From: Amphiscolops sp. MND2022 | Taxonomy: Eukaryota | Direction of reading: 5' to 3' | Length of the DNA: 64,000 bases | NCBI GenBank assembly: GCA_964187785.1 | Contig: OZ076410.1 | Span: 99,200,001-99,264,000 of the forward strand | Shown here: piece after piece, positions 4,580 through 8,992 of the stretch | Layout of the letters: each line of letters opens with the position of its first letter | Numbering within the stretch: position 1 is the first letter of the stretch | The notes under the pieces: generated by a model | Seen by the model: the letters and a program-made list of their open reading frames with translations, nothing else | Told to the model about the DNA's origin: nothing | Database searches by the model: none | Program-made: the position numbers and the translations under genes

Positions 4580-7500
4580 ATGGAAAGCAGCAGGAGTCGG
4601 AAGATCGATCGTGAGGACGTCCCTAGGATGCGGACCAGGTCTTGGGGACGCAAATCCCCGGCTACTTCTTCACCCCGTAAGTTCGAATTTGTTTATTAGT
4701 TTCAGTTTAGAGTTTCTGTGAGAAAATAGCTGGCCAGGCTAAAACCTCAGATTTTCAGATCAATGCATGCTTTTGATCATAATTTGATTTTCGAAAGTTT
4801 CTACACTTCCGGTTTCATGTTCATTCAACTTCCGCTTCCGTGTATTTTCTTTTACAGTTAAATACGGACTCGTTAGACGGTTTAGTCGCATTTGATTTAT
4901 TACTTTATCGTTGAATAAAGCATATGTTTCAGTCGAACTTGGAGCTACAATCAAGTCGCCTACCCAGTCGCCTACAAAGATATATACTCCTCTGCAGGTC
5001 GTCTCACCTAGCCATTCCGAACCCTCGATTTATAGTATTCCCCCACCAGCTGATCTTCCTCTGAACCAGGAGAGGGAAAATATTGAACAACTTCTTTCCG
5101 GATCAGGCGGCCTAACGACTGACACAACCATGGATGAGGAAACGGTGACCCAAACCTCACTTCTTAACCTCATGCAATTAGTTGAACAAGAACAACCACC
5201 AGAGACTCCACTAGCTGATGATGATGACACCCCCAGTGATGCTGCTGGTCAGGATATAGATGAAAACATCGAGCCTCCAATTTCCGGAATCTTTTCTCCT
5301 CGTTATAGCCAATTTTTGACTGCAGGATTACGAGCCGCCATTTCTCAACCCAATGCGCCCCCCGTAGAACATAGTCAGACACACGATGTCGGTCCTACTT
5401 CAACTTTACCGCGCCAAATTTTGAGTGAGGGAATTAAGGAGGTACCAACCGGGTCTGGACCCAATATTAACATTACGCAAAATGAAGTAGCGATTTTGAG
5501 AAATGTTTTGGATCGAATCCCCCAGTCCTTTTTTGTCAGGAGCACAGATGAGCCCAATCCGGAATTTTCAGTATCTGTGGTCGCGAACCCCCCTGTACCA
5601 GTTTTCAGTCCCACAAATAATCCCGAACCAGGAGTGGGAGCAAGTGAACGTCCTCTCAGAGATATTACTGAGTATGAGGAAGAAGATTTGTCTGCTAGAC
5701 CCGCGAAGCGCCCAAGACCACGATACTGTCTCACTGAAGCCATGTTCAGGAAACATCCTGTTCTGAAATTTTTCGCAACAGGGCCAATAGACCGCGAAAA
5801 GACACCATATAAGTGGTGGTGTAGGGTCTGTCGGGTTGAATTGTCCCTCATGAGCCGCGGCCCACTAGAACTGTTATCGCATTACAAAACTGAATCACAC
5901 CTCTTGAAGGAACACCGAATCAGAATGGAGACGCCTGGCCTACCATTATATGACAGGGAAGAGGTGGAATTACAAGGAATTGCTCTACAGGAAGCTAAGC
6001 GATCGGCTAAGGACATGCACCCCATCGCCCCACAACGTGACTTATGTCGATTACTAGTTGGACAAGAGAAACTCCCTGAGCGTAGAAGTGATTCTGCGCC
6101 GATTGATGTCGTATTGTCCCAGATACGGGTTCTTGAACTTGGACTCAAACACGGGGGCAATGTTGCGAGTTTGGTAGCAATACACGACGAGATACTGCAA
6201 CACTCAGCCGGAGGAAGTGCAATCCAGACCCTCGATTGGAGTGATTCGCGAATTTTCGTTAGTATTTATTGCGTTTATTATAGAATTATACCTCTGACAG
6301 CGTGGCATGATTCAATGAGATAAGAGTATCCAGACTCTAATTCCTATTGACATCACTCAATCATTAGTTCCTGTTTCAGGGGATGTTGGTGTACATGTTT
6401 CGCGAGCTTGTCAATTATTGTGTTACCCATATTGGCTCGTCTCAGAATTATTCTTTGTCTTTACATCGGACTCCAACTAAAACTCTGCTCTTCATTAGCT
6501 TTTGGTCTGGGAATGTTTACCAGCGAGTATGTATCGGGGCAGGGCCCAGAGGAGTGTTAGTCCCAAGAAAACTACTCGACTTGTTATCCTCTTTCATTAC
6601 CCTCTTTGAAACGCCGCCAACTTGTGTAACTCTTATTGACATGTGTGAAAGACTCAATGTAAGCCTTACTGCAACACTACCTGGTAGCTTCCGGCCTAGT
6701 ACAGTCAACAGTTTTGGACCGAATGAGTTTGACAAGTGTTTATCACTTCCTACTGCCAGGATAATAGAGAGGCATGATTTTCGGACCATAATCGATTTTT
6801 TGTTGACAAAGTTACGAACTGCCCTTGATCGTGACTGGTTGCAGTCCTTGCCACTACTGCACAAGGTAAGATATTTCCCGTTTCTTCTAGTAGTTGATTG
6901 ATTTTTGTAGTTTCTACATCATAAAAATTTCTTTACAGGCGGTACTCAGCCTCGAGTATACTCTAGTTGAAGCTTCCTTCCTGATCGAGTGTTTTTCTTC
7001 CAACTGGGACAGAATCAGAGATCACCTGACCCAAGTTTCTCGATTACCGGCATATCGCTTCCATATGAAAGAAGTACGTAACTCTCGTTGCTGGATTTTA
7101 CATTTATAAGACTTTTGTTTTAATTTCGATTTTCGTTCTAGCCCAGCGCGCTCGACGAATGCTTTCGCCTGGATACAGCTTATCTAGCTCGATTATTTAT
7201 CATCCGTTGCATCATCGACAATTGTTAGTACAACCTCATCCTTTTCGCTTCTTCAGTACAATTTCGCTAGTTCCATTCTATTTTTTCTATCATCCAGTTC
7301 CATTTTTGTTTCCATCTTTTGAAAGATTTTGGTCTTTAAAACTCGTGGAGAAACTCCAATTTCTATTTCAACAATAGATTACTCTGTGTTTCTTCTTTAT
7401 GAGGCCATAGAGGATTTTTCCACGTGCTTTCAATTATTTCCGCATAATCACGCACATGCAGTTTACCATAATCCATCTAATGACGTATATATGTGCTAAT

Positions 7501-8992
7501 ACCCCACGTGCGCTGACACACAGTTTAGATTCGTAATCCGCCTAGGGACGTTCCTACGTCATTCAGAATTCCGCATAGTAACGTATTATCCATACTCAAT
7601 TTCCGTATGATAGCGCAGTGCTTCACGCTTGGTTTCGTGGAGTGACGTAGTGTTGAGAATCATTTTCTGCATAGTGACGTAGTACATTATACTAAATTCC
7701 GCATATTGACGTATTGTTGAGAATCATTTTCCGCATAGTGACGCATATGCGCCACTGAAGGTTCCGCAGTGTCACATATCTATAGCTTTAGTTTCCGTAT
7801 GATGACGTGTAATCTCGATCACTAATTCTGCATCGAAGTGTGTTTCTCATTCAAAGGATGATCCATCTTCATGCAATATGTTTTATTTTAGACAACTCCG
7901 CGTTTTCCGATTTGCAGAGCCATCTCGACCAAGGATTCAGAATCTTTAATCAGTTTTCTGTATTTATATACAGTCAGTTACAGCTGATATTGCCAGATAG
8001 TTTTCTCGGGGATATTTCTGAATGGGATTCCTACTTGAAGATTGACCTGACACAGACTGATCTTCCTTTCAAGACCCCCGCAGATTTCGTTCTGAACCCG
8101 GATTACCACCATTTGATTACTTCCAGCCGTTTACCACGTCCTAGCAAGTTTGTGGAGCAATCAATGGCGTTCTGCAAATCTTTCTGTGGTGTACTTTTAT
8201 CCCACAACATTTTGAAATCACCTCTGATTCGTGGTTTATCTTCTTTTGATAGCGCTGTCATGTTAGATGGGCCTGAGCGTCATTACATAGCCGCTATAGA
8301 AGATCTCACAAGCTATTTTGTATCTTCCAGTTTGATTACTCCTGGGGACAAAACCAAATGTGTCAGTCAGTATCGATCATTGGTGACCAAATTCCGTACT
8401 GCTAGTGATGTCCCGAGAGGTGATTGGGTTCTATTCCTTGGGGCTCATTACGAGATGCAGAGCCGACCGGAGCTTTCTAGTGCGTTTCGGTATGCCAGTC
8501 TATGTTTACCGCCAACTGTTACGATGCCAGCTTCCTTCAAGATTTCAATCCCAGATCTTGCTTCCGACCAAGAGGTGTTCCAGTCCGTAGTCAGCAGTTT
8601 GCAGCTTTCATTTGTCACCGTTCCCAACGTTTCTAGTCTTTACCAGGATCCTCGATCCGTTTATCGTATATTTCGTTTGTTGGGGCGGGGACGGGAGTTG
8701 CTCAGTGACAAAAAGTTTTCTGTTTGGACCTTTTTCACGTGGCAGTGTACCCAAACGGCTTGCCTTACGAGAAAAAATGGAGACTGCGTATAAAAAGACA
8801 GTTTTACATGGTGAAGGCTTGCCTATCTTTTTGGATATGTCTTCGCCAAGTGGTAGTGCTCCTTCTAGTAGCCACAGTTCTCCGCTTCCTGGTCCTTCTC
8901 TGGGGCTCGTTTCTGTGAGTGTCGCTCGTTGTGGTGAGGCAGAGGTAAACAATGACAAGACCAAGAGGAAAACCAAGGCTAAGAAGTCTTAA
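4580..8992 (+). CDS. Antisense multi-exon zinc-finger gene of element A (about 1040 codons; BED/matrin-like Cx2Cx16Hx5H finger); one frameshift near 8735
   Basis: Model exons: 4580-4676, 4933-6257, 6380-6865, 6939-7073, about 7918-8992. All introns are GT-AG and phase-compatible (1,0,0,0). Finger CRVC...H...H at 5820-5900. Homologous along its length to the element B antisense gene. The last acceptor is the least certain. Confidence 0.8.

Follow-up and report, generated by a model that had tools for sequence, protein, structure and literature searches.

A conserved spliced antisense gene, a candidate hAT transposase derivative, in Ty3/gypsy retrotransposons of Amphiscolops sp. MND2022

The window analysed is a stretch of 64,000 nucleotides from Amphiscolops sp. 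MND2022 (assembly GCA_964187785.1, contig OZ076410.1, positions 99,200,001 to 99,264,000), and all coordinates given here are positions within it. It contains a complete Ty3/gypsy long terminal repeat (LTR) retrotransposon on the minus strand (291-16874), designated element A, which carries on the opposite strand, between pol and the 3′ LTR, an intron-containing gene that is antisense to the element. The LTRs (5′ LTR 15196-16874 and 3′ LTR 291-1961, both on the minus strand) are 98.9% identical across 1,679 bases, have TG...CA termini and are flanked by a 5-bp target-site duplication, ACGAC (left 286-290, right 16875-16879). The element has the Pfam order expected of Ty3/gypsy, namely gag, protease, reverse transcriptase (RT), RNase H and integrase, with gag at 14083-15829 (-) and the pro-RT-RNase H-integrase region at 9247-14052 (-), the two open reading frames (ORFs) of the latter being separated by an in-frame stop in the window copy. 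The primer-binding site, with TGG at 15195, lies just past the 5′ LTR.

The antisense gene of this family (family A) consists of six exons and five introns, all on the plus strand, with the last intron ending before acceptor 7892. Exon 1 (4580-4676) has the ATG start and a phase-1 donor. Exon 2 (4933-6257) encodes a low-complexity acidic region followed by a BED-like finger with the spacing Cx2Cx16Hx5H, and ends at DWSDSRIF in phase 0. Exon 3 (6380-6865) has a segment resembling three strands with no conserved Asp, and exon 4 (6939-7073), which holds the block NWDRIRDHL, is preceded by an intron (intron 3) specific to clade A. Exon 5 (7142-7223) is just 82 nt long and runs from phase 0 to phase 1, with the same length and phases in the second family described below. 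Intron 5 (7224-7891) varies in length and contains an oriented CGCAT/TGACG array, while exon 6 (7892-8992) encodes a helical domain. A preliminary description had proposed five exons and about 1040 codons. Its GT-AG junctions at 4676/4933, 6257/6380 and 6865/6939 and its donor at 7073 were all found and are conserved in sibling copies; the model itself had to be revised, as the 82-nt exon had been overlooked and a stop is met at 8791-8793. The last acceptor which it had placed at 7918 is kept in 9/40 copies, the conserved acceptor lying 26 bases upstream at 7892. Since acceptor 7892 is in phase 1, it is incompatible with a direct junction to the phase-0 donor at 7073; the 82-nt exon fills the gap, giving six exons. 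With this model the window copy terminates at codon 1008 (8791-8793) because its frame is broken near 8760-8790 relative to its siblings.

Intron positions were compared across copies, as the preliminary description had proposed, using 40 family A loci sampled across identity bands among 134 listed matches to the last exon, with denominators given by the loci where a boundary could be placed. Conservation of the splice sites ranged from 34/36 to 37/37 (donor D1 34/36, acceptor A1 36/36, D2 36/37, A2 37/37, D3 37/37, A3 36/36, D4 37/37), even though exon 2 drops to about 40% protein identity among these loci. The 82-nt exon is present in 36 of the 37 loci having exon 4 and is the most conserved part of the protein; the search for it required AG and GT ends, so that the evidence lies in its peptide conservation and fixed length. 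Acceptor 7892 is kept by pattern in 36/37 loci, and the exception (L043) still shows AG. Spliced open frames of 1046-1112 aa were obtained for 16 of the 29 fully mapped loci. In three loci (L060, L063 and L064, on G000 C1, C11 and C8 respectively) internal deletions take part of exons 2-4, with the last exon and the integrase retained. Being spliced and without a match in Pfam, the gene escapes standard annotation.

The protein is under strong purifying selection. Among 22 open family A copies, the ratio of nonsynonymous to synonymous divergence (dN/dS) has a median of 0.044 (29 pairs with dS 0.1-1.5, the pairs not being independent), compared with 0.021 for the integrase over 80 pairs; very young pairs of the antisense gene give 0.19-0.45. 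This shows that the protein, and not the RNA alone, matters. It has a bearing on the idea that what functions is the antisense RNA, which would pair with the genomic RNA to yield small RNAs, with the protein secondary. The exons of the mRNA necessarily complement the genomic RNA, and roles for double-stranded RNA have been discussed for plant elements (PMC7264820; this and the other papers cited were drawn on in excerpt), but a dN/dS of about 0.04, saturated synonymous sites and exact conservation of phase all speak for selection on the protein, and we regard the RNA explanation as very improbable.

Introns on the sense strand of a retroelement are spliced out of its genomic RNA, while the spliceosome does not encounter GT-AG signals that lie antisense. 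The introns of the antisense gene would thus persist because the genomic RNA holds the complement of the gene, which hides its GT-AG signals. This argument from orientation had been made in the preliminary description and agrees with the state of element A, whose insertion is complete from LTR to LTR, has its target duplication and keeps all five introns. Precise removal of a shared intron was seen in none of the 40 family A loci, as judged by intron lengths, which together with this recent insertion fits persistence by orientation. By established splicing logic, a separate antisense mRNA would be spliced. No RNA record was listed for 4450-9250, which counts as evidence in neither direction.

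The cassette containing the antisense gene has also been exchanged between integrase lineages. For loci L032 and L042 the integrases differ by a dS of 0.06 and the cassettes by 1.22, whereas for L032 and L036 the values are 1.32 for the integrase and 0.05 for the cassette. Template switching between co-packaged RNAs would be the simplest reading of this disagreement.

The window has a second, degenerate element (family B) at about 27.9-44 kb, in mirror arrangement. Its gag-pol lies on the plus strand (about 30.6-36.0 kb) and a degenerate copy of its antisense gene on the minus strand (36511-40703), with a finger exon at about 39496-38906, an exon at 38813-38193 and an 82-nt exon at 38058-37977. 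Twenty family B loci were fetched among 150 listed matches; 18/20 have an antiparallel integrase, each splice site is retained by 16/18 to 18/18 of the loci, and the last acceptor by 17/20. One of these (L081) has seven exons encoding 1089 aa. Profile-profile alignment of A and B covers 667 columns at 21% identity (probability 99.8, E 1e-29), and the sequence blocks which the preliminary description had paired between the two families match within it. The Cx2Cx16Hx5H finger is likewise present in both, but the S-x-x-SRG motif given for it is not universal, with KTKG, ATKG, AAKG and KAQG also found. One A-type locus with a KTKG finger (L172, G000:C4:16119800-16129700) has a long intron 3 (about 430 nt) and a short intron 5, and its upstream DNA is rich in CATGA rather than CGCAT. 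The proposal that intron positions are conserved between the families holds for three introns, namely the phase-0 intron after the conserved Trp block, which is exactly aligned between A and B, and both introns around the 82-nt exon. It does not extend to intron 3 of A, which is absent from B, nor to two extra 5′ introns of B. The first intron is in phase 1 in both families as described, an agreement in phase that need not mean homology of the two first exons.

A further 20 loci, chosen among the 202 matches that two distant proteins gave, all have an antiparallel integrase (20/20) and all fall within clades A and B. Overall an antiparallel integrase flanks the gene in 78/80 loci (A 40/40, B 18/20, further set 20/20), these loci having been chosen by matches to the gene itself and not sampled from all elements. 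The gene has the same position and orientation in two clades whose integrases are only about 55% identical. As these two distant proteins have no listed match above 29% identity in this genome, the gene family probably occurs in other organisms too. Two distant relatives (P0135 and P0142), whose best identity of 29% in this genome indicates that they are not from it, have a single frame spanning the region that is split here by introns 4 and 5, so that some lineages are without these introns. A scan of metagenome contigs confirmed no relative, and a search for longer relatives, of 647-2000 aa, found none, which is weak evidence.

With regard to the nature of the protein, it is probably a descendant of a hAT transposase, although this is weakly shown. 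The idea was set down before the fold search was run, and the structure modelling covered exon 6 only, whereas for the finger and exon 3 a hAT-like pattern was judged by eye. The exon 6 model (pLDDT 82) placed the Hermes transposase (8edg_A) at rank 1 of 48,161 chains, with Z 5.1, rmsd 6.8 and 170 residues aligned. In this alignment residues 1-265 of the model lie on 368-596 of the chain, which is the part expected, and most other rows align 42-118 residues. A poorer model of the exon gave Hermes at rank 33 (Z 4.2, 157 aligned). Judged by eye, the order of finger, strand triplet, W..L..Y, helical region and P.L..L...L.LP is one which we take to resemble that of hAT transposases, and the strand segment of exon 3 would be where the hAT RNase H fold begins, this mapping being a presumed one. 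At the positions so assigned for the DDE triad and the CxxH of active hAT enzymes, no acidic residue is conserved in the 16 spliced copies and 14 additional last exons compared; provided that this mapping is right, the catalytic residues have been lost. The Cys and His residues of the finger are conserved, and the protein has basic C-terminal tails.

Several results weigh against such a descent. The Hermes Z of 5.1 is within 1 of unrelated helical matches and below the tool's own trust range, and no hAT chain besides 8edg was among the structural matches listed in either fold search. Foldseek gave nothing at E<=0.001, comparison of profiles with 10 hAT transposases of this genome gave a probability of 0.1, no better than shuffles, and neither exons nor alignments had an informative match in Pfam, whether to hAT, BED or other domains. 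The finger had no zf-BED match in sequence searches of Pfam or PDB, and PDB sequence searches of the protein were blank or at chance level. The ESM Atlas returned nothing or leads below 0.9 only, a deeper profile drew in 6 close relatives only with no bridge to annotated hAT proteins, and a search with PF14291 had no match, as had its controls. It may be, then, that the gene is not transposase-derived at all, being instead a captured host gene or other orphan zinc-finger gene for which the Hermes match reflects a common helical arrangement. The blank outcome of every sequence-level hAT test and the modest Z would suit this, but Hermes is the top-ranked chain, spans most of the model and aligns through the expected C-terminal half in order, the motifs judged by eye follow the hAT order, the gene lies inside the element at 78 of the 80 loci, and the 287 and 276 relatives listed are unnamed exon-sized predictions with no named host relative among them. 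Such an origin seems unlikely, and the preliminary description of a cellular-style gene is, on the same weak evidence, probably wrong, the protein having more the look of a hAT transposase derivative than of a host gene. That a hAT DNA transposon is simply nested in the element, still mobile or passively carried, is scarcely credible; its hAT-like features would be accounted for, but no inverted repeat of at least 40 nt flanks the gene (shorter ones were not searched), the catalytic residues are not conserved and the position and orientation are those shared by both clades.

A candidate target for the finger is found in the noncoding parts of element A. Upstream of the antisense gene, in what is presumed to be its promoter region, nine CGCAT sites form an array on the plus strand (3875-4160), the maximum in 100 shuffles being 6. 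Each LTR has CGCAT 14 times on the plus strand; the 3′ LTR has it 3 times on the minus strand, and its CGCATA sites lie at 1287-1677. Another 10 copies of the motif lie upstream of the gene and 5 lie in intron 5, versus 5 in 10.9 kb of flank. Across 31 family A loci, the plus-strand density of CG[CT]AT per kb is 19.4 in intron 5 and 14.9 upstream, against 1.2 in exons and 1.1 in introns 1-4. In 12/12 upstream regions, and in 10/12 copies of intron 5, it is higher than in every one of 100 dinucleotide shuffles, and the window's intron 5 is alignable with only 2 of the other 11 tested. Clusters of CGCAT are present in the LTRs of 8/8 A loci, three of which have a U3 no longer alignable to that of the window, and in 0/5 loci of the KTKG-finger family (KTKG having been read in L172 only, the other four loci grouped by frame length) and 0/7 B loci, the latter having TGACG clusters instead. 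Clade A has family-specific, one-orientation motif arrays in noncoding regions, as described for VANC proteins.

The finger is predicted to read the CGCAT arrays of clade A, and different motifs in the remaining clades, a proposal by analogy for which we would claim slightly less than an even chance. Some observations count against it: the motif was selected once the window had been seen, about two independent changes underlie the covariation of motif and finger, the family B finger is also SRG yet without CGCAT, and in one locus of the KTKG family (L189) a cluster of 6 sites lies immediately outside the LTR. In addition, the CpG-rich arrays could equally be read by host transcription factors, whose sites TGACG/CGCAT arrays resemble. 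This last point belongs to an explanation with the same gene, probably of the same origin, whose protein anchors the integration complex, or the DNA of the element, on chromatin or aids nuclear traffic, the arrays being sites for host factors. Roles of this kind have been proposed for plant antisense ORFs (PMC7264820), and the basic C-terminal tails could serve as nuclear signals. The swapping of the cassette between integrase lineages (dS >1.2), however, goes against tight co-evolution with one integrase, and arrays are also present within the gene's own intron; we consider this explanation improbable, on a par with that of a non-transposase origin.

The reading which we prefer, with confidence evenly divided for and against it, is that the gene product is a likely dead hAT-type transposase predicted to bind the element's own motifs and thereby to activate the element or shield it from silencing. 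A hAT transposase would have been captured, with or before its introns, by a Ty3/gypsy element. It would have kept its BED-like finger and helical domains and lost its DDE residues, and its introns would have survived since the genomic RNA bears their complement, a separate antisense mRNA being spliced. The finger would then bind short repeats in the LTR, promoter and intron of the element, as the Hermes BED domains and VANC proteins do with theirs, and such binding would activate the element or shield it. More tentatively still, an animal Ty3/gypsy lineage could have domesticated the transposase of another class, retained it as a gene with several introns through its reversed orientation, and put it to use as a swappable, sequence-specific anti-silencing or activating factor, the finger of which co-evolves with the LTR arrays; a retrotransposon would then have a system like those of VANC and TnpA. 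The present evidence does not separate activation from repression by the protein. As a repressor or competitor it would damp transcription of its own element or poison resident hAT transposases; HBZ, a spliced antisense product, downregulates HTLV-1 (PMC10186651), and this genome has at least 150 matches to the hAT dimerisation domain. The protein is, however, so far diverged that against the 10 resident hAT transposases tested it scores no better than chance, and we hold repression or competition to be less probable than the tethering explanation.

Among the other features of element A, a sense ORF of 345 aa (ORF X, 1918-2955, minus strand) lies head to head with the antisense gene and terminates inside the 3′ LTR. 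Its product is acidic and Gln-Pro-rich with a C-terminal CxxC, had no match in a Pfam search, and has homologs at the same place that are 30-98% identical; it may be a partner regulator. In its place family B carries a different acidic sense ORF (41209-41997, plus strand, in the window), seen in 6/7 B loci. The gag frame (15829-14450 and 921-292, minus strand) opens inside the LTR and crosses the LTR end and the primer-binding site, so that about 210 gag codons are found per LTR, a layout shared by 8 A loci and 5 KTKG-family loci. Repeats of the 3′-terminal part of element B, which comprises finger exon, promoter, sense ORF and LTR, are found within 38821-60638; they include a tandem run at 50-58 kb, with units of about 1,637 bases, and some short inverted segments around 46.7 kb. 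Diverged tandem repeats also occur in the flanking DNA at 24273-25456 and 63454-63890, their units measuring roughly 185 and 170 bases respectively.

How the antisense accessory genes of LTR retrotransposons arose, and what they do, have been stated as open questions (PMC7264820, PMC11963269). The present case offers a candidate origin for them, a DNA-transposon enzyme, and a reason for the persistence of introns in a retroelement; the concrete candidate motif makes function testable, and with more than 100 copies in one genome, intron gain and loss and cassette exchange can be traced. Our literature search, with subscription papers, Repbase-type entries and supplements largely outside its scope, listed no paper on an LTR retrotransposon with a transposase-like gene of five to six conserved introns. 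In its excerpted text, one acoel genome paper (PMC9911081) has neither "antisense" nor "transposase", and PMC9289625 describes a demethylase domain in orchid elements with no bearing on introns.

The closest parallel in position is with the antisense ORFs between pol and the 3′ LTR (aORF-3R) of plant and fungal gypsy elements, examples being maize Grande gene23, rice RIRE2 and Retand TRP28 with its Transposase_28 domain (PF04195) (PMC7264820, PMC11963269). These share with the present gene their position and orientation in Ty3/gypsy elements, their presence in most copies and their conservation, and the plant ORFs have been proposed as nuclear or DNA-binding regulators with their own promoter. 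The gene described here differs in its 5-6 conserved spliceosomal introns, its length of about 1,080 codons and its BED-like finger, and Pfam searches with it gave no match to Transposase_28. The plant antisense ORFs are reported to show no similarity to other transposons (PMC7264820, excerpt), and the word "intron" is absent from the excerpted text of PMC11963269.

In comparison with hAT transposases (Hermes, PDB 8edg), the likeness would lie in an N-terminal CCHH-type finger and in a helical C-terminal half that is most like Hermes 368-596. The BED domains of Hermes bind short repeated motifs, the subterminal repeats, in the element ends (PMC10368747). Unlike these enzymes, the gene product has no conserved DDE residues and no ERxFS motif, has an extra block of about 90 residues and a basic tail at its C-terminus, and is encoded inside a retrotransposon, with no terminal inverted repeats of the size searched.

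For a spliced antisense gene in an element replicating by way of RNA there is a precedent, namely hbz of the retrovirus HTLV-1, with APH-2/3/4 in related deltaretroviruses (PMC10186651). Those encode small bZIP-type proteins driven from the 3′ LTR, whereas the gene here is large and multi-intron, starts 2.6 kb inside the element and stands head to head with a sense ORF. With respect to the proposed function, VANC proteins of VANDAL elements bind one-orientation motif arrays in noncoding regions and introns (PMC5735166), and TnpA of Spm is reported to derive from a transposase, as part of a pattern in which transposases losing catalysis turn into regulators (bioRxiv 10.64898/2026.08.24.746577, the excerpted text of which contains neither "retrotransposon" nor "LTR"). 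The present protein resembles both as an element-encoded accessory protein associated with family-specific short motifs, in one orientation, in noncoding regions including introns. VANC and TnpA belong to plant DNA transposons that regulate their own kind, whereas here a retrotransposon would be making use of the transposase of another class.

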